Shown here: in pieces, positions 3,401 through 64,000 of the stretch | Position numbering within the stretch: position 1 is the stretch's first letter | How the letters are laid out: each line of letters starts with the position of its first letter | Origin: a virus | Lineage: Duplodnaviria > Caudoviricetes | IMG/VR virus record: IMGVR_UViG_3300021399_003927 | Span: 1 to 64,000 of that record | Reading direction: 5' to 3' (one strand) | Length of the DNA: 64,000 nucleotides | Notes under the pieces: generated by a model | Seen by the model: only the letters and a program-made list of their open reading frames with translations | Told to the model about the DNA's origin: nothing | The model's database searches: none | Translations under genes and position numbers: made by a program

Positions 3401-3613
3401 ATTGTCTAACATGTCTTTTTTAATATAATCCGCAGTCTTCTTAATAAAGGCATCCTTGCGGATATATTCAGGGTCATGCTCACTAAGACTTTCTTCCGAC
3501 CAAGTTATTTCCCATGTTTTTGTTGCTTCATGGAAATCCTTATCTTTGGTTTCTACAACCTCTTGTGGTGTCATATTGAGGTTGAGGTAGATTTTTTCTG
3601 GTAGATTCTTCAT
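439..3613 (-). other. Run of small tightly packed hypothetical early genes (439-684, 687-914, 928-1242 with two CxxC pairs, 1375-1779, 1908-2264, 2273-2686, 2797-3111, 3115-3312, 3317-3613)
   Basis: Abutting minus-strand ORFs with short spacers; no function recognisable. Confidence 0.7.
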
Positions 3614-3616
3614 AAC

Positions 3617-4435: not shown

Positions 4436-4536
4436 AACATCAATATTTTTTTGCAAATATACGAAAAAAAATTGATATAACAAAGCATTATACCAATTTT
4501 TAACATTTTTTACTCTTTCAAGTGCTTCTGTGTAAT

Positions 4537-5461: not shown

Positions 5462-5512
5462 GTTTTTTGCTATTTTTTTGCAAATATACGACAAATAGTT
5501 TAAATAACCAAA

Positions 5513-5521
5513 TATTTATTA
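5513..5521 (+). promoter_or_regulatory. Putative late promoter TATTTATTA
   Basis: Same motif precedes all four plus-strand genes (5513, 8260, 9577, 10832). Confidence 0.5.
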
Positions 5522-5538
5522 CTAAATAAAAGTTAATT

Positions 5539-8181: not shown

Positions 8182-8195
8182 TAAGTTTACAACAA

Positions 8196-8226
8196 AGGAG
8201 CAATCAGAAATGGTTGCTCTTTTTTT
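8196..8226 (+). terminator. Intrinsic terminator
   Basis: GAGCAATC-agaaat-GGTTGCTC followed by T-run. Confidence 0.8.
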
Positions 8227-8294
8227 GTTTATATGTTGCAACAGTTAGGTTTATCCGAATATTTATTAATAATAAAAGTTAAATATAATAAGAT

Positions 8295-9494
8295 ATGAAG
8301 CAATATTACATAAGTAGAACTGGAGGAGAGATACGTTTTTCCTATACTCCTTCTAGCACGGTAAGTTGGACTGTTATTTCTGAAACTCCTACTAGTGGAT
8401 GGTTTACCACTGGAGCAACTAGTGGTGTGCTTTCAATTCGTTGTGGGGAAGCTGTTGGAACTGACAGCAGAAGCATAGAGTTGAGATACACTGTAAATGG
8501 TGTGCAATGTAACAGTATTAAAATAATTCAGAATGGTGCTAACGTTCCTTGTTCTTGTTCCAACATGCCTTTAACTTGGTCTGTTGACACAAGCACTTTC
8601 AGCAGTCTTCCTAGTGAAGGTACTACATTCTACGCAACGTATGACAATTCACAATGTACCAATGGTAATGTATCATTTGAGAAAAAATACAATAAAAGTT
8701 GGTGGACAATTGATGACAGTGTTGACGGTAGAGTTACTGTTACAATCAATGATGTTGGTACTAGAAGCGGTGATGAGTTATTTGACAATATCATCTATAA
8801 GATAAATGGTGGGGAACCAGCTTGTGAGGACACCCAATTCAGACAGAGGAGCTGGTGTAGTCACTTAACAGCATTTGGTTCATCATTATCGACTAATATT
8901 CCTCAAAGTGGAATGACTAGTGGAACTCAAATTGGTACTTGGTCTCTTGATTCTAGTACATATAACAATAAATTGACCGTTTCATCACCAACTTTGCAAG
9001 TGACCTATACAAATGGCAGTATTAAACTGAATCAAGCAATTCCAGCTAACACTGCTAATACAACGATTAGTTACGTCATAAACGCATATATGACAGGAGG
9101 TACAACTCCTTGTAGTAGTTTTACGCTTGTTCAAGACAGTCTCACTTGTTCATGTGCTGACTTGATGATAACATCTGACATAAGTGGTAACATATCTGCT
9201 GAAAATGGACTAGCTGCTGACACACAGATTGGACATTATGACTATTTTGGAGATAGTGAATGTCTGAACGAAATAATAATCACTTCATCTACTCTTGATG
9301 TATATGTTGACAGCAGTAGGAAAATTAAATTAAGAACTGCAATACCAGCTAATGGTGAAACTACAGCTAAGACGTTTACAGTTAATGCTTATCTAGGAAG
9401 CACTGCAACCACAGCATGTGGTAGCTTCACACTTACTCAAGATGCATTACCAGATTGCGGATGTGATGATTTAGTAATAGCAAAACAAACTTAA
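8295..9494 (+). CDS. Cys-rich beta-repeat protein, paralogue of 5539..8181
   Basis: Y.I...GGE..FSY start; duplicated module (TQIG...IKL..AIPAN...C.SFTL.QD...C.C). Confidence 0.6.
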   Translation: MKQYYISRTGGEIRFSYTPSSTVSWTVISETPTSGWFTTGATSGVLSIRCGEAVGTDSRSIELRYTVNGVQCNSIKIIQNGANVPCSCSNMPLTWSVDTSTFSSLPSEGTTFYATYDNSQCTNGNVSFEKKYNKSWWTIDDSVDGRVTVTINDVGTRSGDELFDNIIYKINGGEPACEDTQFRQRSWCSHLTAFGSSLSTNIPQSGMTSGTQIGTWSLDSSTYNNKLTVSSPTLQVTYTNGSIKLNQAIPANTANTTISYVINAYMTGGTTPCSSFTLVQDSLTCSCADLMITSDISGNISAENGLAADTQIGHYDYFGDSECLNEIIITSSTLDVYVDSSRKIKLRTAIPANGETTAKTFTVNAYLGSTATTACGSFTLTQDALPDCGCDDLVIAKQT

Positions 9495-22734: not shown

Positions 22735-22750
22735 AAAAAAAATATATTAG

Positions 22751-22833
22751 AGACGAGGGTGGGATTCGAACCCACGTGCTTTTCAGCCAAAGCTTTTGCA
22801 GAGCTAGGTAATTGACCACTCTACCACCTCGTC
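22751..22833 (-). tRNA. tRNA-Cys(GCA) with a long variable arm; CCA not encoded
   Basis: GACGAGG/CCTCGTC acceptor, CT-GCA-AA loop, GCT-GAAA-AGC variable hairpin, GTGGG-TTCGAAT-CCCAC, U73. Confidence 0.85.
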
Positions 22834-33666: not shown

Positions 33667-35076
33667 TCAAGTTGTTAGACTCTTAATTTTATTCTCTACG
33701 ACCTCAAAGCATTCATCTTTCGTAATGTTTGGGTTTTCGAAATAGGCATCTTTGACTGCCTCAAGCAGAACTCCAATTATCGGCCCACCTTTTAATTTAA
33801 ATTCTGCCATAATGTCTTTTCCATTTATAGGCAGTTTGATGTTGGCCATCTTATCAATGTCCTCAAGCTCTTCTATTCTGTTAAGAAGGTCGTACACTTG
33901 TCGTTTTTTCTTGCCGTATGTGGAATGTAGGTTATTGGCGTTCATTAGGTCAACCACTGTTCCGATGTCGTTTCCGCATAGATTCATGAACTTTCTGATT
34001 TTCTTATCTGGAGGTACTACACCATCCGCATAGATTTTGAAAATCCTATGATATTCTATAGCAGTTTGTACACTTTTAATGATGTAGTTTGGAAACTTCA
34101 TCATCTTCAAGTCTGTTGCTGCCACTTCTGCACTAAACTTGTCAGGACTAACTGTTCTCATTCTATCAGTAACAATCTTACCAACGTCATGGAATAACGC
34201 TGCCAATCTGCTTTCAAGGTATGGCTGCGTTTCGTCCAACACATTCATTGTATGGTCAAATGTTGTCACCATTGGGTTTTTAGACTCATACGCAAAGTTA
34301 GTGTCGTATATATCTGGCATTACCTTGTTCAGCACGCCACAGTAATACATTTTCCTTATGCCAACGCTAGGTTTGCTGCATGACAGAATTTTTGAAATTT
34401 CATCACTGATTCGTTCTTGTGATACGATTTCCAACCTATTTACGTTTTTAATCATACCAAGCCATGTGTCCTTATCAATACCCCATCCTAGACGAGTTGA
34501 GAAACGAATGACACGCAATATGCGCAATGGGTCATCGTTAAAAATGATGTCTGGGTCACTTGGTGTTCTAATGACTTGGTTGCACAAGTCATCCAAACCT
34601 TTTTTGTTGAAATCAAAAATCTGTTCTGTGCTGATGTTGTAGTAAAGAGCATTAATTGTCAAATCCCTTCTTGCAGCATCTTCTTCAATTGTTCCAAACG
34701 CAGTATCAGGATTTCTGCTCTCTTTTCTATATTGCTCCTTACGAGTCTGCACACATTCTATTTCAATGTCCTTTAGGTCTTCATCCTTGTACAATTGGAA
34801 CTTGGCTGTACCATAGTTCTCAAATACCACTGGGTTTGTATTGGCCGCATAGCACTGATTACGGATGGCCATAAAGTTAGCAAACAGTATCCCACCGTTG
34901 TGGATTTCTACAACAATATCAATGTCTTTGACTTTTTGTCCTAACAGCAAATCCCTTATACATCCACCAACGTAATACACCTTTCCTTCAAAATGCGTAC
35001 CTTTGATACATTGCTGAATAAGGTTTGTTAACTTTATTATTCTCTCGTCAGCATTCTTAAATAATACTTCGTTCAT
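33667..35076 (-). CDS. cca: tRNA nucleotidyltransferase (CCA-adding/poly(A) polymerase family) with HD domain
   Basis: VGGCIRDLLLG...KDIDI, EDAARRDLTINA, DDPLRILR.IRF, LFHDVGK. Confidence 0.9.
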   Translation of the reverse strand: MNEVLFKNADERIIKLTNLIQQCIKGTHFEGKVYYVGGCIRDLLLGQKVKDIDIVVEIHNGGILFANFMAIRNQCYAANTNPVVFENYGTAKFQLYKDEDLKDIEIECVQTRKEQYRKESRNPDTAFGTIEEDAARRDLTINALYYNISTEQIFDFNKKGLDDLCNQVIRTPSDPDIIFNDDPLRILRVIRFSTRLGWGIDKDTWLGMIKNVNRLEIVSQERISDEISKILSCSKPSVGIRKMYYCGVLNKVMPDIYDTNFAYESKNPMVTTFDHTMNVLDETQPYLESRLAALFHDVGKIVTDRMRTVSPDKFSAEVAATDLKMMKFPNYIIKSVQTAIEYHRIFKIYADGVVPPDKKIRKFMNLCGNDIGTVVDLMNANNLHSTYGKKKRQVYDLLNRIEELEDIDKMANIKLPINGKDIMAEFKLKGGPIIGVLLEAVKDAYFENPNITKDECFEVVENKIKSLTT

Positions 35077-35309
35077 TGGTAAGTATTTACAAATTCTTCT
35101 ATAACTTTCTGAATCCATTTTCTATTCATGTCCGCCCAATACCGAAAACCTTCATTAGTTTTGTTCCAAGGAATTGAGGCCACTGTAAAAAATGGCTTAT
35201 TAGGGGCTTGTCCAAACTTTCTTAAATAATAACAGTATTTCACGTAACACCCATTCTCTTTTAAGAACTTTGAAAGTTTGGGGCTAATCTGTTTTTCGCT
35301 TTCCATCAA
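35073..35309 (-). CDS. Small hypothetical protein
   Basis: FLK...WNKT.EG..YW pattern; coupled ORF. Confidence 0.6.
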   Translation of the reverse strand: MMESEKQISPKLSKFLKENGCYVKYCYYLRKFGQAPNKPFFTVASIPWNKTNEGFRYWADMNRKWIQKVIEEFVNTYQ

Positions 35310-52803: not shown

Positions 52804-52847
52804 TTTGTGTCTAGATTTAATTTAAATGTTATTTGTAAAAAAAAAAC

Positions 52848-52944
52848 AAGGAACAATAATGGTCGGATTCGAACCGACATAAGATTGATTTGCAGTCAAT
52901 TGAGTATACCATTCCTCCACAGAGTAACTTGCTGTATGTTCCTT
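52848..52944 (-). ncRNA. ACAGCAA-type (skipping-rope-like) RNA enclosing tRNA-Cys D, anticodon and T arms
   Basis: AAGGAACA-TACAGCAA...TGTTCCTT closing stem; internal ATTGA-CTGCAAA-TCAAT and GTCGG-TTCGAAT-CCGAC; no acceptor stem. Confidence 0.6.
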
Positions 52945-52946
52945 TG

Positions 52947-53018
52947 TAGCGAGAGAGAGAATCGAACTCTCACCTAGTGAATATGAGTCACTTGTTCTAG
53001 CCGTTAGACTATCTCGCT
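52947..53018 (-). tRNA. tRNA-Met(CAT); CCA not encoded
   Basis: AGCGAGA/TCTCGCT, AGTGA-CTCATAT-TCACT, GAGAG-TTCGATT-CTCTC. Confidence 0.85.
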
Positions 53019-53093
53019 ATGAATTTATTAAATTCTTCTTCTACAAATTTTGGATTATACCTACCCATATCTTTGATGATATATGGAGTGTAC

Positions 53094-53678
53094 TTATCTT
53101 TTGTCTATGAAGTTGAGCATTATAAACCCACCTTCACTTTGATGCTTTTTTATAAAATAAGAGTTTTTCTTTTTCGAAAGAAATGGAAAGATTCGATAAA
53201 TCCAAGAATTTTGGCATCCATTTATGATTTTAGGCATACCATTTACCTTTTCATACTCAAATTGGTATAGCTTCTTTCCATCGAACCTTCTGTAACCACC
53301 AATGTACATTACATTTGGATATACCGTTTCTATTATACGGCAGAAATCAGAAAACTTATACTCTACTCCGCTAGTCTTTTTGTTTAATGATTCCTTTTCT
53401 GTTTCATCCAAAGTGATAAGAACAGTCACATCACCCATTTTATCGAAAAAATCCAAGACCTCATAGAAAGAGAATATCTTATACTGAAATATTCCATTCC
53501 TAATTATGATTCTGTTAAACTCATTTGTATATACTCTAATATCAAAGAGTCTTACGCCATAATTGATGTATTGTTTTTCATATGATATTGTTTGGCATCG
53601 TCCAAACCATTTGACAAACTTAGACCACCACGAAGATGGTCTAAGATATGTCAGAGAATTATTAGAACCTATTAACAT
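53094..53678 (-). CDS. PI-PLC X-domain-like phosphodiesterase with catalytic histidines apparently lost
   Basis: IGSNNSLTY, RCQ..S..KQY..GVRLFDIRV, IIRNG (family pattern GSHNS ... HG). Confidence 0.7.
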   Translation of the reverse strand: MLIGSNNSLTYLRPSSWWSKFVKWFGRCQTISYEKQYINYGVRLFDIRVYTNEFNRIIIRNGIFQYKIFSFYEVLDFFDKMGDVTVLITLDETEKESLNKKTSGVEYKFSDFCRIIETVYPNVMYIGGYRRFDGKKLYQFEYEKVNGMPKIINGCQNSWIYRIFPFLSKKKNSYFIKKHQSEGGFIMLNFIDKR

Positions 53679-53743
53679 CTTATTTACATTTACTATATAT
53701 TATTTCCCTATATATAATAAATATATGAATGCTAACTAATTGT

Positions 53744-55021
53744 TCAATACCAATTTACACTAGTGTCTTGTACGTAGTTGACAAAATCAGGATATATGTC
53801 TCTGATGTCATCCCTTTCATTGCACCACACAAACGTTGGGTCAACTGCAATCTTTGATGCTGGACTGCCAACTTCTGCTTTCAAAGGTACTAACGTGTTC
53901 TGCTTCATTACTGCAATGGTAATATCCCAAGGAGCAACGATGTGGTCGATTTCAAACGTTACTGGTTCCAAACCATTTACACAATTAGCACCATTAGTGT
54001 TAATCATCGTGCCAACAGTGATACCTAATGTTGGGTTTGCTTCTGCAAACAACTCATGTACCTCTCTACCATCAACGTATAGTGGAATAGTACCACCAGC
54101 TGCTAGAATGGTTACTGTAGTTGTGTTAGAACCTTCTGTATATGAAGCATCAAATACTACGTCATTAAAGTCGAAATCTGAGCCGCCATATGCGCTCAAG
54201 TCTTCACAGATGATACGAACAGTATATCTCTCTGGAGGAGTTACACCCTTTCCAGGAACAATCTTGACAATCCAATCGTTATAGATGTAGTCTCTGTCAA
54301 CTTGCTCGTTCTTATTCTGTCCATTAGCTTCAAAATCAAAACCTACATAGTAATTGCCGTTGATTTTTTCCATACGGAAATTGTAGAATACATGGCCATT
54401 GTCCTCAGAAGACTTGAAACCGAATTTGTGGGAGTCGGTGTTCACCATAAGCATTTTACCATCCCATGCGCCACAATTACCATTGTTGAAGTTATTGATG
54501 TGGTCATCGTAAGACTCTCCAATCACAACCTCTTCCTCGTAAGGCCACCAACGTACAACATTGACGTGCTTGTTGGTCACTGTACAAAGCCAATCCATAT
54601 GTTCTGAACCAGTAACTGTTTGATTATCGTGGTTCTTATAGGTAGCTACGCCTTTGTATACTTGCTGAACGAAGAAACAATCCCAATCAACTAAAGAGGT
54701 ATAAGAAGCCTCACCCTTCTTGTTGAAAACTGCTAACACAGCTTCTCTTTCGGCATCAGTAATGGCCGTAGGTACAACATAACCATTTTTTTCCCATTCG
54801 TTTCCTTTAGGGTCTGCTGCACGAGTAGTCATCCAAAATGATGAAGGTAACGTCCTAGAGCCAAATCCCCAATCTTGGTTCTCTGCTGGCTCACCAAAAA
54901 CTTGCTTGAACACTGCATTATAACTATTCTGGACTGCGTCTTCGTAAGACGTTGTAAATACGTCCTTTTCACAAGCAGTGAACGCTATTAATGCTAGTAA
55001 ACTTAAAATAATTTTCTTCAT
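53744..55021 (-). CDS. Prevotella-type outer-membrane lipoprotein with a DUF4842/LruC-like C-terminus
   Basis: Lipobox FTAC; DQ/NQDWGF, YNDWIVKI, RIICEDL...SDFDFNDVVFD. Confidence 0.75.
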   Translation of the reverse strand: MKKIILSLLALIAFTACEKDVFTTSYEDAVQNSYNAVFKQVFGEPAENQDWGFGSRTLPSSFWMTTRAADPKGNEWEKNGYVVPTAITDAEREAVLAVFNKKGEASYTSLVDWDCFFVQQVYKGVATYKNHDNQTVTGSEHMDWLCTVTNKHVNVVRWWPYEEEVVIGESYDDHINNFNNGNCGAWDGKMLMVNTDSHKFGFKSSEDNGHVFYNFRMEKINGNYYVGFDFEANGQNKNEQVDRDYIYNDWIVKIVPGKGVTPPERYTVRIICEDLSAYGGSDFDFNDVVFDASYTEGSNTTTVTILAAGGTIPLYVDGREVHELFAEANPTLGITVGTMINTNGANCVNGLEPVTFEIDHIVAPWDITIAVMKQNTLVPLKAEVGSPASKIAVDPTFVWCNERDDIRDIYPDFVNYVQDTSVNWY

Positions 55022-55045
55022 TTTTATTATAACTTTTTTTTATTT

Positions 55046-55297
55046 TCAACCAAACATACTCATAGGGTCTTCATTAACCTTAACAAGCTCAATAGACAAT
55101 TGGAATCGTGGATTTTCATCCTTTTCCTTATACTCTTCTGGATGCTCTTCCATCTGTTTCACTTGCTCTTCAAGCTTTTTAATAGCCTCCTTGAGCATTG
55201 CAACTTTGTCAGTTCCAGGATAGTTTAAACCAAACCTAAACTCTTTTCCTTCCATAAGCAGCATTTTTGCTTGTAACATTTTTGTAAACTTATCCAT
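55046..55297 (-). CDS. Small hypothetical protein (start revised to MDKFTK)
   Basis: The upstream extension in the ORF track overlaps a tRNA-like element. Confidence 0.6.
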   Translation of the reverse strand: MDKFTKMLQAKMLLMEGKEFRFGLNYPGTDKVAMLKEAIKKLEEQVKQMEEHPEEYKEKDENPRFQLSIELVKVNEDPMSMFG

Positions 55298-55313
55298 AAC
55301 CTTAAATAATTTG

Positions 55314-55375
55314 TCAGTGGCGTTGGACTCGAACCAACCATGCTCTAGAATCATCGCACCAAAAATTTACCACTG
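55314..55375 (-). ncRNA. 62-nt D-armless tRNA-like RNA with a possible TT-CTA-GA loop
   Basis: CAGTGGT/GCCACTG acceptor, GTTGG-TTCGAGT-CCAAC T arm, A73 then CAA. Confidence 0.6.
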
Positions 55376-55382
55376 TTTTGTT

Positions 55383-55490
55383 AAAAAATGGCTGCTAAGT
55401 TAGCTACTCCTAGCAGCCATAAAGCCCATCATATCCCAATCTCCCTCACGTGCTAGGTAGGTGATATGATATAGTCACGAAAGTTTCCTT
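55383..55490 (-). ncRNA. Putative ~105-nt small RNA ending in a strong terminator
   Basis: ATCATATC/GATATGAT stem, ATGGCTGCTAG...TTAGCAGCCAT-TTTTTT, TATTTATA motif just upstream. Confidence 0.45.
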
Positions 55491-55873
55491 TAGTATAAAT
55501 ATAAATAATAATTGATAAATATAATCTATTTTTTCAGAGTTATTTTATTAAATAGATTCATAATTAACTTCCGTAACTTTTTAAGACTTTTTGTTGTATT
55601 CTAATCCGTATTTAAAGAACTTCTCACATAGTATCATCACTTGGTTCTGTGACATAAATGATGGCTCACCTAGTAATTCGATTCTCATCTTCTTACGGAA
55701 AAATTCTAGTGCTTCCTTATCCATCATTGTATTCTTTTTAAATAAGTTATTTTCAATAAGTCATTCTATCTAGGAACTCGTCATCATCTTCTTCTTTTGC
55801 AATTATTCCCATGTCGAAAATGCAACGTTTCCTTTTACCACTTGCTTCACACTTCCCATATAACCGACATTTT

Positions 55874-56409
55874 TCATTGCAAGGTATCATGGTTTAATTC
55901 TTTTAAAGTGTTATTGGTTAAATCTTTACTTTCTTTTCTGAGGGTTTTAATCTTTTTGTGCGCATCATATTGGTCACATCTGTACGTCCACTTTGTAGCC
56001 GTTTTTTTGTACTGTTTGACCTTTGATGATGGGTCAGAATCAAGTTCTTTCCAATTTTTCGCATCCCTATACCCTCTAGGGGCATTTTCATCTTTAACTA
56101 TCCAATAGTACAAGTTTTTGTTAATGCGAGACACATATTTTGTGTGTGACTTCCACATTCTGAACGCTTTGCCTCTTTTTGTCATAAATATAAATAGTTT
56201 GTAAAGATTGTTTATTCGCTAAACTAATACCGAAATGTTACCAAATGTTCAGTACCATCGTCTAATTTAACACCCCCATCATTAATGGGTCTTCCATTCC
56301 TTATCCATTCCTCATATGTAAATGGCCTCCAATATTCAAAAAATATATCACCATTTGCCCACATATTGAACCCATATACATTGTAATCGTCTTCGTATGG
56401 CCTATTCAT
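55874..56409 (-). other. Two small hypothetical genes (55874-56185, 56224-56409)
   Basis: Minus-strand ORFs. Confidence 0.55.
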
Positions 56410-56425
56410 ATCTTTATATTTTAAG

Positions 56426-56497
56426 TACCCCTAGATGGAATCGAACCATCATCTTAGGTTTAGGAAACCCACGCTCTATCCGTTGAGCTATAGGGGC
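56426..56497 (-). tRNA. tRNA-Arg(CCT); CCA not encoded
   Basis: GCCCCTA/TAGGGGT, TGGGT-TTCCTAA-ACCTA, GATGG-TTCGATT-CCATC. Confidence 0.92.
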
Positions 56498-56556
56498 ATT
56501 TGAAAACAATTAAGACTTACCAACCATTCTCCAAATTGATAAGCCTTAAAAGTTAT

Positions 56557-57111
56557 TTAGTGTCTGCCAAGTCTGAATCTACGATTCATAATTACGCTTG
56601 GGTCAGTTTCCTCTACCACTGGCGGAGTCTTCCAAGGCTCGTCACTCTCCGTCTTACGGACGAAGCGTCCATTAACGTCACGTCTTACAAGCTCTGGAGC
56701 ACGCGGTGCTTCACGAGGAGCTTCAAAGCGAGAACAATCTCTACGAACCTCTGGTCTACCACACTGAGACTGTCTTGGCTGCACGCAGCCATTAAGCAGT
56801 TCAGTAACTACACAGAGCAATACTGCTGATGCAATCGGAAGCTCTGGAGTACTGTCAATCAAGTAGACCTCACCACTCCTTACATCGAAAGCAAGGACAG
56901 CGTGTACGCCATTCTGTGCATCACGGCTGATTGCACGTGCCTCTTCGCTACTGAGCTTATACTCGCGGTCAGCGTTAGGCGTGGTGGCGCACTCTACATG
57001 ATTCTCAGAGAGGTGGTAGATTACAAGACGCAGATTTGACTTGTCGCTACACTGTGACAGAATTTCAGCCATAGGGCTGTTGTCAGAATGAAGTTTAATG
57101 TAATTCCACAT
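56557..57111 (-). CDS. Hypothetical protein with an RRDVNGRFVRK tail motif
   Basis: GC-richer ORF; tail motif shared with 22908..23588. Confidence 0.7.
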   Translation of the reverse strand: MWNYIKLHSDNSPMAEILSQCSDKSNLRLVIYHLSENHVECATTPNADREYKLSSEEARAISRDAQNGVHAVLAFDVRSGEVYLIDSTPELPIASAVLLCVVTELLNGCVQPRQSQCGRPEVRRDCSRFEAPREAPRAPELVRRDVNGRFVRKTESDEPWKTPPVVEETDPSVIMNRRFRLGRH

Positions 57112-57151
57112 AAATTTCTCTTGTTAGCTAATTAATACTCGTTTGTTAAAA

Positions 57152-57187
57152 AAAAAATAGGTGGGTAGCTTGGTGGCCACCCACCTT
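57152..57187 (-). terminator. Intrinsic terminator
   Basis: AGGTGGGT.GC...GC.ACCCACCT with an A-run on the plus strand. Confidence 0.75.
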
Positions 57188-57206
57188 TAAAAGAGAGATA
57201 CAACGA

Positions 57207-57551
57207 TTACTCTGCGCTAGCAGTCTCCTCATCGTCACCGAAGAACTCGTCAAAGGTTGACTGAGCAATCTTGAGTTCAACGTTCAGCTCGTAGAGACGA
57301 GTCTTAGCGCTCTGCAAGTCAGCAGCCCACTTGGTTGGATTCCAACCCTTCACGCCAGGACGGAGTGAATCAGTGGTGTCTGGAGCGAAGTCGGTCAGAC
57401 CCTGAATCTGCATTTCCACGTTGGTCTTCTCAATCTTGAGCTTGTGGATGATTTCCTCTTGGGCAATCTTTGCCTGAGTGTTAATCTGTGAAGCACGTGC
57501 TGCAAGAGCCTTAGAGTCATTCTGACTCATCATCTGTAAAAACTTTCCCAT
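57207..57551 (-). CDS. Helical hypothetical protein, probably highly expressed early
   Basis: Two tandem promoters upstream; host-like codon usage. Confidence 0.75.
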   Translation of the reverse strand: MGKFLQMMSQNDSKALAARASQINTQAKIAQEEIIHKLKIEKTNVEMQIQGLTDFAPDTTDSLRPGVKGWNPTKWAADLQSAKTRLYELNVELKIAQSTFDEFFGDDEETASAE

Positions 57552-57618
57552 TGTTGTTTAGTTTTAAAAGGTTTATAAAATGTGAACTATAAATAATTGT
57601 TTTACAACTTGTTGTTGT

Positions 57619-57775
57619 CTTTTTTACAATGCAAAGATATATTTTTTTTTCGTAATTTCCAAATTTTTTGGGATTAATTTTTCAAAAAATTTACCTTTGT
57701 TTTTTGATGTTGTTTTCATCGTTTCTTTTTAACAATGCAAAGATATATCTTTTTTTCGTAATTTCCAAATTTTTC
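57619..57775 (-). repeat. Tandem duplicated promoter unit
   Basis: ACAATGCAAAGATATAT.TTTTTTTCGTAATTTCCAAATTTTT at ~57626 and ~57732. Confidence 0.85.
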
Positions 57776-57779
57776 AGTG

Positions 57780-58766
57780 TTAATGCTTGTTAAAAGTTTT
57801 GAAAGCCTCATCTGCAAGCTGTGATACTAGGTCTATCTGAGCAGTTGCTAACGCACTTCTGAACATTCTAGGGCTAATGCGCCTTTTAGAGCCTTTCTTG
57901 CCCTTTCTAGAGGCTATTACCTTGTCTACAAGCTCTTTGGAGGGTTTCAACTGTTCTTTCTCTGACGAATAACCAACGTGGGTAAACCCAAGGAAAGAAC
58001 CGCTTTTTTCAATCTTACAAAGCTCAACATGGTTTTCGCCATATTTAAACTCTCCAGTGCGAACTTTAATCTGCTTGATGTACCTAATGGTTGGGTCTTT
58101 AATGCTTGCGCCAATTGCAAACATGGCATCAAAGAAATTGGTCAGCTTTTTACTACCACTAAGACTGTTCTGTGTTAAAGGAGTTCCCAAGTTACGCTTT
58201 GGAGTATGGGAAAGCACAAGAATGCTTATACCATATTTTTTCTTCAATGTACAAAGGTTTTTCATGAGCTTTCCAGCAGTGGTTGCAGTGTCTTTCATGT
58301 TCACCAACCAACTAAGGTTGTCAACAATGATTACCTTTGAGTTGTATTTGTTAATGTTGGCCTCAATACCGCCAATAATAACCTCATCAAAACTTTGCTT
58401 GGAGGCATCACAATAATCTCTTACCTTATCACTATCAAGCTCAACACGAATGAACTTGTCATTGAACTTGAAGGTACTTTTATTCTTTTCGTCAGTATAG
58501 CGGAGTTCAAACTGCTTCTTGCTCAACTCAAAGTCATAATACAAAACAGTTTCATCCTTGCCCAACTTATCAGCAATCATATTGCTCATTTGAACAGCAA
58601 GAATACTCTTACCGACATTAGCATCAGCAAAAAGGCAACATACCTCATTCTCAATCCAAAACTCTTTCCAAAGCTTCTTCGGATTCCTCTGCACTTTTGC
58701 GGCCTCTATTGTTTCGTTGGCCGTCATTGCGCTAAAGATGTCTGTTAAATTTGGTTTGTTTGCCAT
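57780..58766 (-). CDS. RecA-fold AAA_25-type ATPase
   Basis: Walker A ADANVGKS, YYDFE, Walker B IIVDNL, LSHTPK, LSGSK. Confidence 0.85.
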   Translation of the reverse strand: MANKPNLTDIFSAMTANETIEAAKVQRNPKKLWKEFWIENEVCCLFADANVGKSILAVQMSNMIADKLGKDETVLYYDFELSKKQFELRYTDEKNKSTFKFNDKFIRVELDSDKVRDYCDASKQSFDEVIIGGIEANINKYNSKVIIVDNLSWLVNMKDTATTAGKLMKNLCTLKKKYGISILVLSHTPKRNLGTPLTQNSLSGSKKLTNFFDAMFAIGASIKDPTIRYIKQIKVRTGEFKYGENHVELCKIEKSGSFLGFTHVGYSSEKEQLKPSKELVDKVIASRKGKKGSKRRISPRMFRSALATAQIDLVSQLADEAFKTFNKH

Positions 58767-58801
58767 ATATAAAAATTAAATTGATTTCTAACTTTATTAT
58801 T

Positions 58802-59191
58802 TCATGAATGAAAAAATGATAAAGCTTTATCATTTTTTATTTCCATATTTTTTTCTTCCATATTTCCAGAAATAGTAAAATATCTTTTGACTACATCTAT
58901 ATCTGATAAGGATGGACGAGTGAAACACTCAGTTTTTCCATTATAATATAATATATCCATATTACCAAATTTAGAATGTATTTCTTGTAAGTATTTAATT
59001 AAACTTTCAAGGTCAAAACTTGCGCCATAATTAGTCGTTCTCACCTTTTTCCTCGTATCACGTAATTCATTATAACAAATATTATTTACTAAAAGTGGGG
59101 AAAATGTTTTTTTTCTTTCATTGGCTTCACCAATGGTGATTTTTTCTTTTTTAACCCCATCTATTATAATACTTACAACTTTTTTATCCAT
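58802..59191 (-). CDS. Hypothetical protein
   Basis: 129-aa ORF. Confidence 0.6.
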   Translation of the reverse strand: MDKKVVSIIIDGVKKEKITIGEANERKKTFSPLLVNNICYNELRDTRKKVRTTNYGASFDLESLIKYLQEIHSKFGNMDILYYNGKTECFTRPSLSDIDVVKRYFTISGNMEEKNMEIKNDKALSFFHS

Positions 59192-59220
59192 ATTACTATA
59201 TCCATATTAGTAAATGTTTG

Positions 59221-59292
59221 TACCCCCTCAAGGAATCGAACCTTGTTCTCCAGCGTCACGCTATTGTTGTCCTACCATTAGACGAAGGGGGT
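59221..59292 (-). tRNA. Glu-like tRNA body with a remodelled, non-canonical anticodon arm (pseudo-tRNA/decoy)
   Basis: ACCCCCT/AGGGGGT, GTC-TAATGGTAG-GAC, CAAGG-TTCGATT-CCTTG; positions 27-31 do not pair with 39-43. Confidence 0.7.
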
Positions 59293-59484
59293 ATAGCGGT
59301 GGATTGATTTTGCTAGCGTTGCTCATTCCACCTAAAGGCAACAGTTGTACTCAACCAACGAGACGGTTTATAGACACCCACATGACTCGAAATCCGACAA
59401 CCCAGTCAGTTGCTTGAGGGCAACCACTCTACAACCTTATGCGTCATACCATTACGCAATAGAAAAGGGAAGGCTGTATACCCT
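59293..59484 (-). ncRNA. Structured RNA with a tRNA-like D arm, several hairpins and an H-type pseudoknot
   Basis: GCGT-AATGGTATG-ACGC; GTTGC/GCAAC; TGACT/AGTCA; GTTGC..GGTGGA..GCAAC..TCCACC. Confidence 0.45.
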
Positions 59485-59580
59485 TAGTTCGTTATTTTAC
59501 TTGATACATCATTACTGTACCTCCACCGACAACTACGTCAATGTTAGCACCTTCATATTCTTTTATTTTAAAAATTAAAA

Positions 59581-59895
59581 TCAATAGAAACTGCTTATCT
59601 TTACCTCAAGAGAAGACACAGTATCTGCTGTAGCGGCCTCTTTCTCTACGATGTTGATTTCTGCATAACCACAGTCACCACCTTGAATGAAGATGCTACC
59701 ATCCTTTTTATGTTTAACATTCCTATTCTCCCACTTTCTGCGCTCGTCATCATTGCGGAAAGCGTAGTCATCAAGAATCTTCTCGTAAACTTTTTCCACT
59801 ACAGCTTTTGCTGTTTCTTTACTGTCGCAAGGGATGACTTCAGTTTTTACTGCGTGGTCATCACTGTCGAAAAACATTGTTTCTACTACTACCAT
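59581..59895 (-). CDS. Hypothetical protein
   Basis: ORF under the promoter at 59934. Confidence 0.65.
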   Translation of the reverse strand: MVVVETMFFDSDDHAVKTEVIPCDSKETAKAVVEKVYEKILDDYAFRNDDERRKWENRNVKHKKDGSIFIQGGDCGYAEINIVEKEAATADTVSSLEVKISSFY

Positions 59896-59993
59896 TGTTT
59901 TTTAAAGTTAATAATGTTGTTGTTAAATTTCGGTGCAAATATATGAAAAATAAATGGAATAACCAAATATTTTAGCATTTATTATGCATTTTG

Positions 59994-60068
59994 TAGCAGA
60001 GAGAGGACTCGAACCTCTGACCTCCCCATTATGCGTGGGGTGAGCTGACCCAACTGCTCTACTCTGCA
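59994..60068 (-). tRNA. Initiator-like tRNA-Met(CAT) with an atypical anticodon arm
   Basis: U1:U72 mismatch, A11-U24, CCCCA-CGCATAA-TGGGG (G33), AGAGG-TTCGAGT-CCTCT. Confidence 0.8.
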
Positions 60069-60164
60069 AAACTAAGTATACCTAGAACACCTTTCAACAT
60101 TGATGAACTTCATAACAGTAACGGCCTATTACCGTTATGCTCTATCAACATCTAATCAATGTTG

Positions 60165-60861
60165 TGGGCCTAGAGGGGCTTGAACCCACGACCTTCAGAT
60201 TCATGCTACACTATGTTACCATAGTCAAACAAAGCTTGTAAAACCATTACGACTGCTCTTGGGTCAGCACTTTACGCATCTTACGCTATTTCAGAAGCCT
60301 TCTGAGATTTTACAAATTGCTTTCTATACCCCTCTGTACCTTAGAGTCGTTGACCAGTATAGAAACTTTGTTTGTTGTAGTCTGGAATACATCTTTACCA
60401 TATTGAAATTCTTGCAAGATTATGTTAGGGCTGAAACCTTTTGAGGTAAGACGTATCTATCTCATATATAGCAGTTTCTACACTCTGCTTTAACATAAAT
60501 TTCAACTTAGGTATCTCCTATATACTCTCTACACATTTATGAATGTAGCATACTTAATCATTAACTTTTCTGAAGCGTATTTTCATTCTCATTAGAGATT
60601 TTTTCGCCTCTACATTCAATTTAGCACGGTATAATCCTTACACATTATTGGTTAGTGTTGTGTTAGTTCGCCTCAAGGTAGCACGGATAAATCCGTGTCG
60701 TTCTTCAGGCTACCACTCGTAGGTTTAATGACTAACTCCATTAAAAGGACTTCCACCGTTTTAGGGAGATTCTACATAGGGATTTCTCGCCTATGCACAC
60801 AATTGTGAAACGCTTTTCACATCTATGAGTCTGCTGCTCTAACCAACTGAGCTATAGGCCC
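60165..60861 (-). tRNA. tRNA-Ile2(CAT) interrupted by a group I intron; exons 60825-60861 and 60165-60201
   Basis: Joined exons give GGGCCTA-TA-GCTC-AGTTGGTTA-GAGC-A-GCAGA-CTCAT^AA-TCTGA-AGGTC-GTGGG-TTCAAGC-CCCTC-TAGGCCC-A. Confidence 0.92.
60202..60824 (-). mobile_element. Group I intron (IC3/Azoarcus-like), 623 nt, no homing endonuclease ORF
   Basis: 5' exon ends in U, intron ends in G; IGS GTG; P3 ATCTCC/GGAGAT; P7 GAGTATA/TGTATTC; CCTAAG...TATGG receptor in P8; GAAA loop on P2. Confidence 0.9.
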
Positions 60862-60866
60862 AAATT

Positions 60867-61002
60867 GCCAAAGGAACTTTCAAGTTAATTCTATCATGTA
60901 TGCTGCGCCTTACGCCTAGACTCTGACGCATTAATTAAATAAGATAAGTACTCCTTCCGTAACAAATCACATACATGAATCCTATGTTAGACTCTCTTTG
61001 GC
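60867..61002 (-). ncRNA. Rod-shaped RNA with a central bubble (6S-like architecture)
   Basis: GCCAAAG/CTTTGGC closing stem, ~17x20-nt bubble, TCATGTATG/CATACATGA inner stem. Confidence 0.4.
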
Positions 61003-61222
61003 TATATGGTTTATTCAATAATAATAATAGTCTTCGTCATAAAACTCGTCTTCGTAGTCTTCATCACCATTTTCTATGATGTCCATTACGTCCTCTTCGG
61101 AGATTCCCAACTCATCGGCTATGTCTTCTACTGTATAGCCGTCTTCAATCATGTTGTAAATTTCTTCTTCCATAATAATTTTTTTGCAAATATATGATTT
61201 TTATTTTTAATAACCAAATATT

Positions 61223-61477
61223 TTAAGATTTTTTAATGTTATACAACCAATAATAAATTAAAACAATTATCCCACCAAACAAAAACACGATACCATAAGA
61301 CATAGCCATACAAGCATACACATAAGCAACATCAAGCAAATTCATAAGGCTTTTGGTGAACATTTCCTTAGTTGGCATGCCACTCACATTACTAGGCACT
61401 ATGTTATCTTTGAATATAAGAAAACTAGTTAAACAGAATAATGCGATGAACAATATGATTTTGAATTTATTTTTCAT
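61223..61477 (-). CDS. Small membrane protein
   Basis: Two hydrophobic segments. Confidence 0.6.
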   Translation of the reverse strand: MKNKFKIILFIALFCLTSFLIFKDNIVPSNVSGMPTKEMFTKSLMNLLDVAYVYACMAMSYGIVFLFGGIIVLIYYWLYNIKKS

Positions 61478-61479
61478 AT

Positions 61480-61854
61480 TTAATAATTTTGTTTACTAGG
61501 TATAACACCTCTGACTCCTCCCCTTGGGTTTTCAACATCACCCTCATATCTAGGAATTATATGTATATGGCAATGATGAATGGTTTGTCCAGCAACCTCT
61601 CCACAGTTAATACCGATATTATAACCTTGGGGATGGTATCTTTCGTCTAATATTTTTTTGACATTCTCTATTGCATAATGCAATGACTCCTTTTGAGAAT
61701 CTGATAAATCAAAATATGTTTCAACGTGTTCCTTTGGTATAATAAGTGTATGACCTTTAGATACTGGATATTCATCTAATACAGCTTTCCATACAGTTCT
61801 GTCGAACAACACATTCTCTTCCTTTTGATTTTCACAAAAAACACACTTATCCAT
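61480..61854 (-). CDS. HIT-family nucleotide hydrolase
   Basis: CVFC, YPVSKGHTLIIPK.H, AGQTIHHCHIHIIPR. Confidence 0.93.
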   Translation of the reverse strand: MDKCVFCENQKEENVLFDRTVWKAVLDEYPVSKGHTLIIPKEHVETYFDLSDSQKESLHYAIENVKKILDERYHPQGYNIGINCGEVAGQTIHHCHIHIIPRYEGDVENPRGGVRGVIPSKQNY

Positions 61855-62329
61855 TGTCTCTGATATGTTCCACTGCGCTCGTAAGGGCTACAGCAATTGC
61901 CTTTTCAATATTATTGCTTCTAGAAGAATCAGCTTCAATCTTTACATACTTGAAAGTGACTCTTCCATTTATTTTCTTGCACACACAAATCCATATTGTA
62001 CTATTTTCACTGTCCTTATGGATAAATGCGTCACCAATAACACTAATACATACATCTACGTTAAACATGTAAGATGCATATAATGCAGTTTTCATGGCCA
62101 CTTGAGAACTGTATAAACCATTCGCCTCTATAACATCTTCACCTATTCTCATCAACGTTTTAAGGGCATCGTCATTGAAATAGTTAAGAGTACCCTTATA
62201 AATTGTTGGAACGGCACATACGCTTCCTATGGTTGCTCCAAGCAGTCCACAAGTACAATTCTCAACTGTTGCTATCGTTAGACCTCTGTTGAGGATTTCT
62301 AAGGCTAATTCTTTTAACTCTTTATTCAT
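61847..62329 (-). CDS. CinA C-terminal / PncC (NMN deamidase)-like protein, degenerate
   Basis: TIATVENCTCGLLG (cf. AESCTGG), G.YSSQVA..MA-like segment, SVIGDA (cf. TGIAGP). Confidence 0.75.
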   Translation of the reverse strand: MNKELKELALEILNRGLTIATVENCTCGLLGATIGSVCAVPTIYKGTLNYFNDDALKTLMRIGEDVIEANGLYSSQVAMKTALYASYMFNVDVCISVIGDAFIHKDSENSTIWICVCKKINGRVTFKYVKIEADSSRSNNIEKAIAVALTSAVEHIRDNG

Positions 62330-62678
62330 TGAAATAAACGTTTTTGTCAATATTAAGTTCTCTAAACACGTCCATGATTTTTTTGTTGATGTCTTGTTTC
62401 TGCTTTTTCAGTTTGGTTATGATGTTCTTTAAAGCTTCTTCCTTGTTAAGGAAATATACATCATCTACAGATGATTTTTTCAAATCATAAATAATGAAAT
62501 GGCAACTATCACCCCACCAATCATGCGTTTGCCTACCTAGCTTATCCATGAAAAGGCAAAGTAATCGTCCTTGGCCTTCATCAATAGGCTTAATTCTTTT
62601 GGTTTCAACCTTATTTCCTTTTATCACGTATACTGGATAAATCTCTCCAATAGTTAAATCTTTAAATGTAAGTGTCAT
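62322..62678 (-). CDS. Hypothetical protein
   Basis: LTFKDL start shared with 22089..22379; FLNKEEA motif. Confidence 0.6.
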   Translation of the reverse strand: MTLTFKDLTIGEIYPVYVIKGNKVETKRIKPIDEGQGRLLCLFMDKLGRQTHDWWGDSCHFIIYDLKKSSVDDVYFLNKEEALKNIITKLKKQKQDINKKIMDVFRELNIDKNVYFNE

Positions 62679-62896
62679 TTCATATACTTTTTATTAAATT
62701 TTTTGCAAATATATGAAAAAAAATTGAGAAAGACAACCATCTTCCTCAACTTTAACAATCTTTAATTTTACATTTGTTCTGTGCTCTGTTTATCTTGTTG
62801 TAAAAGTTAATCCTTTTCAACTTATCAGTAGACTTATTGGCTGTAGCCAAATAAGAATTCTTAGCTTTTTTCTTTTTATTTAAACTAGTCATATTG

Positions 62897-63076
62897 GGAG
62901 TCTGGAGGGAATCGAACCCACATTATGTTTAAACCGACACACTAAATGCGCTTCCCTACTTGTGTTTCACCACGTTTTCGGTGCATCCGCAAAAATACAA
63001 GACCTTAATTCAGATTCTCTATCGGTAATAGCCACTGCATTTGCTACCGCATTGTCCATTTTATGCTACAGACTCC
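62897..63076 (-). ncRNA. 180-nt tRNA-like RNA: His-type 8-bp acceptor, 10-nt anticodon loop, ~100-nt variable-arm domain
   Basis: GGAGTCTG/CAGACTCC, GCAT/ATGC D stem, GTAGC/GCTAT, ACCGATA/TGTCGGT, GTGGG-TTCGATT-CCCTC. Confidence 0.75.
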
Positions 63077-63085
63077 ATATATTAA

Positions 63086-63565
63086 TTACACATTGTAATC
63101 CGTGAATCTTACTTCTGATTTGTTATATATTTTTGAACTTGATTTATTATATTCATCCTCGTTAACAATTCTACCAAGTAAAGCAAAATATAAAGGATGG
63201 CAAGTAAATTCAGAACCATTGTCATCGAATTTTATTGTAACTTCTTCTGACCACATCTGGTTTCTGTTAATCTCCACTAAATGTTTCTCGTTTGAACATA
63301 CAAGACTGAAACGGCCTCTAGATACTATCTCCCCTAATCTATAGTGTTTGTTGACAAAACACTCTCGATATATCATTGGATTTGTCATATTACTGTTGTA
63401 ATACTTGGTGTCCATTACAAACACTCTGTCTCCAATATTGAAGAAACATTTATATGGAGTTCCATATTTTTCATACGAATTGTGGGAAGGCCATAATACC
63501 ACCATTCCGTCAACTCTTCCTACTTCACAAGTTTCAACCCTTATGAATTTTTTTTGTTTGTTCAT
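63086..63565 (-). CDS. Hypothetical protein (SH3-like FNIGDRV)
   Basis: 159-aa ORF. Confidence 0.6.
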   Translation of the reverse strand: MNKQKKFIRVETCEVGRVDGMVVLWPSHNSYEKYGTPYKCFFNIGDRVFVMDTKYYNSNMTNPMIYRECFVNKHYRLGEIVSRGRFSLVCSNEKHLVEINRNQMWSEEVTIKFDDNGSEFTCHPLYFALLGRIVNEDEYNKSSSKIYNKSEVRFTDYNV

Positions 63566-63593
63566 TTTGTTTGTTTCTTTTTTTTAGTATTAA

Positions 63594-63752
63594 AAATAGG
63601 TTTGCTTGTACCAACCTTAAAGGTATCCTCTTATCCATCAAGGAACTAGGGCAAGGGGTCAATCCTCGCACAGCATTACTGCTTGCCTACCATTTCTTAC
63701 GTGGTTTGCGCTTGTCTAACTATTTCAGCACCCAATATGGGTGCGCCAAGCC
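63594..63752 (-). ncRNA. GC-rich multi-hairpin RNA downstream of a tRNA
   Basis: GCACCCA/TGGGTGC, ACCA/TGGT, AGCA-GTAA-TGCT, GCGAGG/CCTTGC, TACC/GGTA; possible GCTTG/CAAGC closure. Confidence 0.45.
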
Positions 63753-63756
63753 GTAG

Positions 63757-63832
63757 TTGGGAATTCTGGGCTCGAACCAAAACATCCTAGTGAATCAGAC
63801 TAGGCGCATTAACCATTTTTTGCTAATCCCCA
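63757..63832 (-). tRNA. Atypical tRNA, nominally Ile(GAT), with a Gln-like acceptor and 6-bp anticodon stem
   Basis: TGGGGAT/ATTCCCA, CCTAGT-CTGATTC-ACTAGG, TTTGG-TTCGAGC-CCAGA. Confidence 0.7.
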
Positions 63833-63924
63833 ATGGGGCAGACAACCTTATTACTACCATCCTCACATTTAGTCACCCCCCAAACATGAGTTTTATGTCA
63901 ATCTGACAAAGGAAAATGGATGCG

Positions 63925-64000
63925 TGAGCGTAGTGGGATTCGAACCCACGTAGCTTATTGCCATAATAGTTTTAGAGACTATCCTAATAGACCACTCTAG
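63925..64000 (-). tRNA. Amber suppressor tRNA (anticodon CTA), long variable arm; 5' end beyond the window
   Basis: CTAG/TTAG D stem, ATAGT-CTCTAAA-ACTAT, TGGC-AATAA-GCTA variable arm, GTGGG-TTCGAAT-CCCAC, A73. Confidence 0.88.

Follow-up and report, generated by a model that had tools for sequence, protein, structure and literature searches.

The stretch of DNA analyzed here (the window) comprises positions 1–64,000 of the 129,491-b viral record IMGVR_UViG_3300021399_003927 of IMG/VR, whose completeness CheckV puts at 44%, and its last 11 kb carry genes for tRNAs, tRNA-like RNAs and other structured RNAs (Table 1). An earlier note on this region, made from the letters alone, had singled out six elements that keep a good T arm while another part is rebuilt, and these are called here, as they were there, 52848, 55314, 59221, 59994, 62897, and 63757. 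The region is real, but it is merely the opening quarter of something larger: the tRNA model RF00005 has 39 matches on the 129,491-b record, nearly all of them within 52.8–91.7 kb, and the last 11 kb of the window begin an RNA-gene island of ~40 kb that ends at ~91.7 kb. Open reading frame (ORF) coverage is 0.41–0.76 within the island and 0.86–0.96 outside it. All genes between 50 and 64 kb are on the minus strand, and so are the six elements and their neighboring RNAs.

The source phage is a giant phage or megaphage, presumably of rumen Bacteroidota. Its 328-aa helicase-like protein (57780–58766) has relatives at 70–81% identity in nine viral contigs, five of which are complete genomes of 295–413 kb, and the runs in which the sequence was found are bovine and sheep gut metatranscriptomes. 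The motif TTTG-N16-23-TAnnTTTG, which we take to be the Bacteroidota promoter type, occurs 28 times vs 5.8 expected, and a scan for sigma-70 promoters showed no enrichment (47 vs 39.8 expected). Near-identity searches with 52–64 kb against deposited phages returned nothing beyond tRNA matches of 39–43 nt. Comparisons below rest on nine syntenic relatives and five metagenome contigs; locus names beginning with L refer to individual viral loci.

Table 1. RNA features of the last 11 kb of the window, with the gene for the CCA-adding enzyme
Feature	Coordinates	Strand	Evidence
CCA-adding enzyme gene (PolyA_pol family)	33667..35118	-	PF01743 92.8 bits, 484-aa open frame
Clamp-closed tRNA-like RNA (52848)	52837..52945	-	RF00005 43.5 bits, positions 6-65; outer stem covaries
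Parts of 52848	outer stem 52937-52944 with 52848-52855; UACAGCAA 52929-52936; core 52860-52921; U run 52837-52846	-	
Canonical tRNA(CAU), adjoins clamp upstream	52946..53018	-	ARAGORN; RF00005 62.2 bits
Acceptor and T-arm element without D arm (55314)	55313..55375	-	sequence reading; no RF00005 match
Canonical tRNA-Arg(CCU)	56425..56497	-	ARAGORN; RF00005 68.7 bits
tRNA-like handle (59221)	59220..59292	-	RF00005 41.0 bits
Conserved structured RNA, fused to the 59221 handle	59293..59470	-	9/9 syntenic relatives; covarying helices span 59299-59425
Initiator-type tRNA(CAU) with G33 (59994)	59993..60068	-	RF00005 52.8 bits
Split tRNA-Met(CAU)	60164..60861; exons 60825-60861 and 60164-60201; intron 60202-60824 (623 nt)	-	ARAGORN with introns
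Multi-helix RNA directly upstream of split tRNA-Met	60867..61002	-	homologues at L037, L038, L040
tRNA frame with large inserted domain (62897)	62896..63076	-	five homologous metagenome loci; covariation
Structured RNA ending in hairpin and U run	63592..63756	-	8-sequence alignment
tRNA-Ile(GAU)-like gene (63757)	63756..63832	-	ARAGORN default threshold; RF00005 41.0 bits
Amber-suppressor tRNA(CUA), long variable arm	63924..64000, on to 64009 past the window	-	ARAGORN; RF00005 55.4 bits (63925-64009)

In the 64-kb window we counted 11 copies of the T-arm motif GGTTCRANNCC, against 0.47 ± 0.63 in 100 shuffles, none of which reached 11, and nine of the copies lie within 52,848–64,000 on the minus strand. 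Reading of the sequence bears out all six of the original descriptions of a kept T arm with an alteration elsewhere. Full-length matches to RF00005 (gathering score 29 bits) are found for three of the six, 59994, 59221, and 63757; 52848 matches over model positions 6–65 only, and 55314 and 62897 have no match at E ≤ 10. We took a functional decoder to have an anticodon stem of 5 bp and a loop of 7 nt, with U33 and with position 37 a purine. Four elements depart from this, namely 59221 (3-nt loop), 59994 (G33), 62897 (10-nt loop), and 63757 (6-bp stem, U37); 55314 has no recognizable anticodon arm, and 52848 conforms but lacks a pairing acceptor. None of the tRNA or tRNA-like genes read encodes its 3′ CCA, and the phage does, as had been supposed, encode a CCA-adding enzyme.

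The six had been thought to belong to one common system, which they do not, as they form at least four unrelated designs. The argument that random decay would not preserve their stems so consistently fares better. Because relatives keep the acceptor, D, T, or closing stems of 52848, 59221, 59994, and 62897 through compensatory changes, these four are not products of decay; the argument lacks comparative support for 55314, with one weak analogue among the homologues collected, and for 63757, with none. The further structured RNAs said to lie between the elements are there, those at 59293–59470, 60867–61002, and 63592–63756 being conserved with covariation and joined by a 623-nt intron (60202–60824). 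The intron-split tRNA (60164–60861) and the amber-suppressor tRNA (63924–64009) had been overlooked.

Element 59221 retains its acceptor, D, and T arms in full; its anticodon arm has given way to a 5-bp stem closed by a loop of 3 nt, and the body presumably resembles that of tRNA-Glu. The structured RNA 59293–59470, which has five helices, adjoins it on the 5′ side, and the pair is found in 9/9 relatives. When the two are aligned together in nine sequences, pairing is found in 96.6% of cells, and 15 of the 43 pairs have changed on both sides, compared with 8.0 ± 1.6 in shuffles (0/500 as high) and ≤2 in slid controls. The covarying pairs of 59221 are in the acceptor (234:339 and 236:337) and the T stem (317:333 and 318:332), its D arm is invariant in the nine sequences, and the replacement of its anticodon arm is hypervariable (22–59 nt), with no sequence or fold common to the nine. 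A handle for processing or stability would be expected to look like this in the alignment; a decoder would not. One RNA-library contig covers 59328–59543 with 0 differences. A 16-mer scan for the 59293–59470 RNA gave 57 loci, eight of them real and all eight in relatives already in the set.

Element 52848 follows a tRNA(CAU) and has homologues in six relatives. Its core consists of D, anticodon, and T arms with a degenerate acceptor (3/7 positions able to pair), and the outer stem pairs in 7/7 sequences with compensatory changes (AAGGAACA/UGUUCCUU vs AAGAAGCAU/AUGCUUCUU and AGGGAACU/AGUUCCCU). The octamer UACAGCAA between the outer strand and the core is invariant in 7/7 sequences, and a U run follows the return strand in 6/7. 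Pairing holds in 92.9% of the core's cells, and both sides have changed in 6 of its 14 pairs vs 3.2 ± 0.9 when shuffled (2/500) and 0–1 in slid controls; the anticodon stem covaries at four of its five pairs, and the anticodon triplet varies (GCA, ACA, AGA, AAA). We also note that the tRNA(CAU) upstream of the clamp is 73 nt long in the window, whereas its orthologs in relatives, of 84–93 nt, combine a D arm of the Ser/Leu/Tyr type with a long variable arm (L033:15662–15747, L041:8883–8966, L040:16263–16348, and others); a class-II body with CAU is unusual.

The same design, here called a clamp, recurs in the record. It is made up of a GGAAnC-type strand, one base, UACAGCAA, a cargo of 40–125 nt, the complementary strand GnUUCC and often a U run, and it occurs six times (at 52936, 67733, 69158, 82787, 85582, and 91460), always on the minus strand. 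The octamer has 13 occurrences on both strands of the record; the seven that are not clamps lie outside the island or on the opposite strand and lack the GGAAnC-type strand and the return strand. Four of the six copies start ≤5 nt from a predicted tRNA 3′ end. Clamps are also present in many related loci with covarying stems, e.g., GGAUAC/GUAUCC and AGGUGC/GCACCU; under a loose 6-of-7 pairing criterion 51 of 65 occurrences pass, and, as chance readily satisfies it, only instances with the GGAAnC-type flank are relied on. Two cargoes outside the window (82.6 and 85.5 kb) are circularly permuted tRNA-like bodies. The one at 85445–85590 (minus strand) runs in the order anticodon arm (CUGAUAA), T arm, acceptor 3′ strand, 15-nt loop, acceptor 5′ strand, D arm; its acceptor has 7 bp, its halves if joined would form a canonical tRNA-Ile(GAU), and its orthologs in relatives have AAU or CAU in the loop.

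Element 62897 has D and T arms and an acceptor of 8 bp. The anticodon position is taken by a 6-bp hairpin whose loop has 10 nt, and ~105 nt then follow up to the T arm. A long-range helix, in which 5/6 pairs covary (columns 54–59/142–147), closes an inserted domain of ~85–90 nt in the variable-arm position. Overall 8 of 46 predicted pairs are changed on both sides, acceptor pair 10:176 going from G-C to A-U, while the hairpin loop (10–11 nt among homologues) varies in sequence and length. At the acceptor G-1 faces C73 as in the phage’s own tRNA-His, whose 5′ context it likewise shares; the T arm is identical over 18 nt to that of the phage tRNA-Asn, and the D arm resembles that of 63757. No homologue of 62896–63075 was found in the nine loci or, by DNA search, in the five complete relatives; a pattern scan found five metagenome loci at 83–96% identity, two of which are identical over the printed stretch. 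Judged by these homologues, 62897 is a conserved RNA, not a wreck. A role as a tmRNA-like tag template was also considered and dismissed, since no frame survives a deletion of 16 nt in L187.

In the five metagenome loci the 62897-type element adjoins a homologue of 63592–63756 and lies near a suppressor-type tRNA, without the 159-aa ORF (63086–63565) that separates the two RNAs in the window and for which a search for relatives found none. The 63592–63756 RNA itself has 83% mean column identity in eight sequences, with changes on both sides in 10 of its 36 predicted pairs, and in relatives it follows the suppressor tRNA.

The loop of 59994 is CGCAUAA, with G at position 33, and bases 1 and 72 form a U/U mismatch. 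The marks of a bacterial initiator tRNA are a CAU anticodon, bases 1 and 72 left unpaired, A11:U24, and an anticodon stem with three consecutive G:C pairs at its foot. CAU and the unpaired 1:72 (U/U or C/A) are kept in 8/8 homologues and A11:U24 is present in the window; the stem there is CCCCA/UGGGG, not the GGG:CCC found in L033, L034, and L035, and it differs between two sub-lineages. Homologous loops (CGCAUAA, UGCAUAA, UUCAUAA, CUCAUC, GGCAUG, GUACAUG) have G33 in 3/8 and a length of 6 nt in 2–3 of 8. Thus 59994 reads as an initiator-type tRNA whose loop outside the anticodon is unusually free.

Comparison says less of the last two elements. 55314 has a perfect 7-bp acceptor (55369–55375 with 55315–55321), a 5-bp T arm, 30 nt between them, and no D arm, and it stands directly after a terminator-like hairpin (~55388–55420) and before an ORF start. 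L040 has its single, diverged analogue at the corresponding place, with a different but complementary acceptor, and two strain variants in the acceptor (55317 and 55321) both keep pairing. 63757 has a 6-bp anticodon stem and the 7-nt loop CUGAUUC with U37. Together with 63833–63923 it is an insertion between the suppressor tRNA and 63592–63756 specific to this contig; homologues of 63757 were found in none of the nine loci, five whole relatives, 35 further loci, and 14 metagenome loci, and a DNA search with 63756–63923 in the five complete relatives returned nothing. Both elements may equally well be functional or be young duplicates or pseudogenes.

The split tRNA-Met(CAU) brings in a second conserved family. 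Its intron sits after the anticodon, and intron-less orthologs of the tRNA occur in relatives (L040:7013–7087 and L035:7213–7287); in the multi-helix RNA directly upstream 5 of 37 predicted pairs are changed on both sides. Two more copies of the intron lie in the record, in a split tRNA-Arg(UCU) and in a tRNA-Trp-like gene, and a 17-mer from its core finds 36 occurrences in 35 viral loci (one locus has two), at 19 of which ARAGORN predicts a split tRNA, labeled Arg, Leu, Met, Ser, or Glu. Among 22 distinct members the triplet before a conserved UGC pairs with the three bases that end the exon and forms U-G at the junction: this guide pairing was found by script in 19 (GAG-CUU in 11, GGA-UCU in five, GUG-CAU in three), two further introns fit it by eye as GGU-ACU, and the tRNA-Trp copy does not. 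The intron ends in G in 21/22. A P7-like helix with a bulged A beside CAGACUAC covaries with the 3′ end (columns 437:530: UA 13, CG 5, UG 4), and P2-, P4-, P5-, and P6-like helices were found together with CCUAAG...UAUGG, which we take to be a receptor-like motif.

These features recall group I introns, which share the insertion in the anticodon loop after U, the guide triplet with U-G at the splice site, the terminal G, the bulged-A helix near CAGACUAC, the CCUAAG...UAUGG motif, and the presence/absence polymorphism among relatives. They differ in that these introns are 460–750 nt long without an ORF, that the group I model RF00028 gave no match at E ≤ 10 whether 12 kb, the 721-nt locus, or the whole contig was searched, and that a P3 pairing or P3-P8 pseudoknot was looked for and could not be placed, so that we term the intron only group-I-like, a member of a phage-wide family that would probably be self-splicing. 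A scan of 185,579 species genomes with a 17-mer of the intron gave 19 loci; 0/19 extend beyond the word, and they are thus chance matches. The Lak megaphage paper, in the part available, also reports “enigmatic introns” in phage tRNAs that Rfam left unclassed (PMC6784885).

In four RNA libraries the bins that cover the intron have a summed contig depth of 54–8,469, vs mostly <30 beside them, and dozens of joints where variable loops are exchanged for other letters. The depths of 5,300–8,500 among these sum many members, and the libraries may hold DNA, so they speak for a family common there rather than for expression of this copy. Among the RNA-library contigs listed none joins both tRNA-Met exons of this phage, and a loose contig end at 60824 was rejected as a sign of splicing, as it fits the intron-less allele of a relative. 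Stretches without cover in these libraries (e.g., 62.4–62.8 kb) are uninformative. A degenerate host of the intron was seen at L042 (G005:256594–257035), where the intron and the tRNA-Arg(UCU) 3′ exon are kept and the 5′ exon lacks the D arm and the anticodon strand; immediately upstream of this remnant stands an intact tRNA-Arg(UCU) of 82 nt.

Several other RNA genes of the island lie beyond the window. A tmRNA gene at 68405–68765 of the record scores 54.4 bits, above its cut-off of 47, and a GOLLD-like RNA at 66528–66961 scores 73.7 bits (E 2e-17), below the gathering score of 150. The latter directly adjoins a 124-nt tRNA-like element (66388–66512, ~54 extra nt), and both are kept in relatives. 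The record also has a full gene for the RtcB RNA ligase (102165–103388), which is present in 5/5 complete relatives as well, and a second RtcB C-terminal fragment of 76 aa (96679–96891). Within the window, a lone 84-nt tRNA-Cys(GCA) with a long variable arm (22750–22833; 51.9 bits) is far from the island.

Pfam and PHROG searches with ten ORFs matched only four, the HIT, CinA, and AAA/helicase-like proteins and a 680-aa protein with sub-threshold ankyrin matches. The HIT-family hydrolase (61480–61854) and the CinA-type, nicotinamide-nucleotide amidase-like gene (61847–62350) are side by side inside the island. At the start of the island Bacteroidota-type promoters precede ORFs, not RNA elements. 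Near-identical cassettes of this type (TTTGG...ATATCTTTG or ...ATATATTTG) at 57632–57663, 57738–57769, 59936–59967, and 61187–61218 precede small ORFs, with a tandem pair upstream of 57207–57551. ORFs 56557–57111 and 57207–57551 have a summed RNA-library contig depth of 130–590 (run X1), well over their neighbors, and the highly covered region 56411–57613 has a strong terminator hairpin at its end (57159–57186).

How are these RNAs to be understood? The explanation that we prefer, and to which we give about an even chance, is that the island strings tRNA genes, tRNA-derived modules, and structured RNAs behind short operons, with the tRNA shape reused as a handle, cap, or frame for RNAs that do not decode. 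The RNAs would presumably be excised from long transcripts, and the tRNA-shaped top half would be kept as a handle for host RNase P, RNase Z, and the phage CCA-adding enzyme. Such a handle would set the ends of neighboring RNAs and stabilize them, and the decoding parts, once unneeded, would be free to change or to carry inserts. What the analysis shows is presence, conservation, covariation, and gene order; processing, stability, and any part in defense are inferred. Structured RNAs are repeatedly paired with a tRNA or tRNA-like element: 60867–61002 with tRNA-Met, 59293–59470 with 59221, the suppressor tRNA with 63592–63756, and the GOLLD-like RNA with the 124-nt element. The picture of tRNA scaffolds bearing cargo drawn in the earlier note thus has counterparts in the clamp with its varied inserts and in the tRNA-like modules fused to conserved RNAs, even though the single system does not stand.

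Several points weigh against reuse of the tRNA shape as a handle. The RNA data are assembled contigs, which are unable to show RNA ends or processing at the predicted sites. The anticodon stem of 52848 is kept by compensatory changes, which is unexpected if the top half alone mattered, and the clamp octamer, which has no known role, may indicate a specific protein or ribozyme activity, not generic processing. In folding energy 62897 and 63757 do not surpass shuffles (z −0.96 and −0.41), 63757 and 55314 are without comparative support and may be pseudogenes, and 59994, which keeps CAU in 8/8, may simply be a working initiator tRNA.

This last point can be generalized: the elements might be unusual but working decoders, 59994 an initiator, 63757 a tRNA-Ile and 62897 an aminoacylated RNA (possibly with histidine, given G-1:C73), used in recoding with the amber suppressor. 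Under the usual rules of tRNA identity, the CAU and 1:72 mismatch in 8/8 homologues of 59994 and the A11:U24 of the window copy fit, as do the tRNA-His-like G-1:C73 and 5′ context of 62897, its linkage to a suppressor in the five metagenome loci, and the passing of the ARAGORN default threshold by 63757. The G33 of 59994 does not fit, nor do U37 and C38 in 63757, where A37 is expected for a tRNA-Ile, or a loop in 62897 of 10–11 nt that varies in sequence and length. Alternative genetic codes were rejected, as the standard code already covers 0.86–0.96 outside the island and fits the whole fragment, so no recoding is visible in 129 kb. We consider decoding a rather unlikely account of these elements.

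Phage tRNA arrays are usually read as codon supplements and lately as replacements for tRNAs cut by defense systems. A defense-related arms race on the anticodon parts is a live alternative to handles, if in our view an unlikely one; tRNA-shaped RNAs would be decoys or nuclease-resistant substitutes that absorb or escape anticodon-loop cutters or modifiers, with repair by RtcB and the CCA-adding enzyme. The parts that change fastest are indeed those of the anticodon loop or arm (the triplet of 52848, positions 32, 33, 37, and 38 of 59994, the arm of 59221), RtcB is in the contig and in 5/5 complete relatives, and the CCA-adding enzyme is present. Loop changes let phage tRNAs escape anticodon nucleases, according to the parts available of two papers (PMC10264068, PMC11464382). 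Yet this analysis identified no anticodon nuclease, host, or target, and 59221 here offers no anticodon loop as bait, only its 5-bp stem and 3-nt loop. The variation equally fits relaxed constraint, and the 7–9 sequences are too few for a test of positive selection.

That the elements are decaying, functionless tRNA pseudogenes, leftovers of duplication, recombination, and deletion in a fast-turning array, is improbable as a general account: it suits 63757, which with 63833–63923 has no homologue in any set searched, 55314 with its single diverged analogue, the parts shuffled between elements (the 62897 T arm with tRNA-Asn, its D arm with 63757), and the truncated intron-bearing tRNA-Arg remnant in G005, but it is excluded for 52848, 59221, 59994, and 62897 by 70–96% identity with compensatory stem changes, and both acceptor variants of 55314 keep pairing.

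A bolder reading, which we put forward as a long shot, joins the designs into one toolkit. Clamps would be a modular RNA system placed behind tRNA 3′ ends, with a cargo that is often a tRNA-like or circularly permuted tRNA body, and cut by themselves or by a dedicated nuclease; phage RtcB would join the ends to give circular or re-ordered tRNAs or nuclease-proof mimics. Clamp, 59221-type handles, and the 62897-type frame would then together supply tRNA-shaped RNAs of non-standard kinds, to be used in recoding or against defenses that target tRNAs.

At least four tRNA-shaped RNAs unable to decode normally are kept by selection in a 300–400-kb rumen phage clade, beside an RNA ligase and a CCA-adding enzyme. 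This raises the questions of which parts of the tRNA shape a phage needs when decoding is not the purpose, what the invariant clamp motif binds or catalyzes, and whether the “enigmatic” tRNA introns of megaphages are self-splicing group I relatives missed by standard models. Small size, conservation, and abundance in rumen RNA libraries make the families suited to structure probing and in vitro assays.

Rfam searches with lax filters at eleven short loci gave no family for 55314, 62897, the intron, 60867–61002, or 63592–63756. The clamp family, the 59293–59470/59221 pair, and the 62897 frame have no Rfam family and are undescribed in the literature searched, though those searches were not motif-specific. 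Partial likenesses to known RNAs can nevertheless be drawn. The fusion of 59221 to 59293–59470 fits the arrangement of mascRNA and MALAT1, in which a conserved structured RNA carries at its 3′ end a tRNA-shaped element with acceptor, D, and T arms and an unconserved anticodon arm; such cases are known from eukaryotes, their partner RNA is unrelated, and RNase P cleavage of the 59221 fusion is a prediction.

The clamp is reminiscent of YrlA (RF02553), in which a terminal stem formed from both RNA ends encloses a tRNA-like module. The island has two YrlA-like RNAs, the clamps at 82.6 and 85.5 kb, which match at 41 and 31 bits (E 1e-7 and 7e-5) and share a 5′ motif with 52848; both of these matches are under the gathering score of 69, and the terminal stems of the two misfit the model. 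The core of 52848 differs further in having the normal, not the permuted, arm order, and its 141-nt locus gave no YrlA match at E ≤ 10. No Rsr/TROVE gene was found in the record or in 5/5 complete relatives.

Theta ribozymes, which resemble that of hepatitis delta virus (HDV), are conserved RNAs found right after the 3′ ends of phage tRNAs, often suppressors, in Bacteroidota gut phages, as described in the available part of the source, and the placement of 63592–63756 and of the clamps directly 3′ of tRNAs is similar (PMC10879173). The consensus fold of 63592–63756 is a row of hairpins. The HDV-like Rfam families had no match in searches of the window’s 52–64 kb loci, 63592–63756 included, and an HDV-like fold (a nested double pseudoknot with a catalytic C, cleaving at its own 5′ end) was judged improbable for the latter by eye, as its first seven bases have no complement for P1.

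The nearest setting is that of the Lak megaphages of Prevotella and the tRNA islands of huge phages. Lak genomes are ~540 kb with 26% G+C, the complete relatives of the present clade are 295–413 kb, and this clade is not Lak; the present fragment, moreover, reads well under the standard code, and conserved non-decoding tRNA-like families go unmentioned in the available part of the Lak account (PMC6784885). That account has already published tRNA arrays and tRNA introns of phages, as well as non-coding regions of high expression in megaphages of Bacteroidota, and, so far as available, it shares with the island described here many tRNAs together, some of them with introns, a suppressor tRNA, long, highly expressed non-coding regions, and the signal of a Bacteroidota host (PMC6784885).

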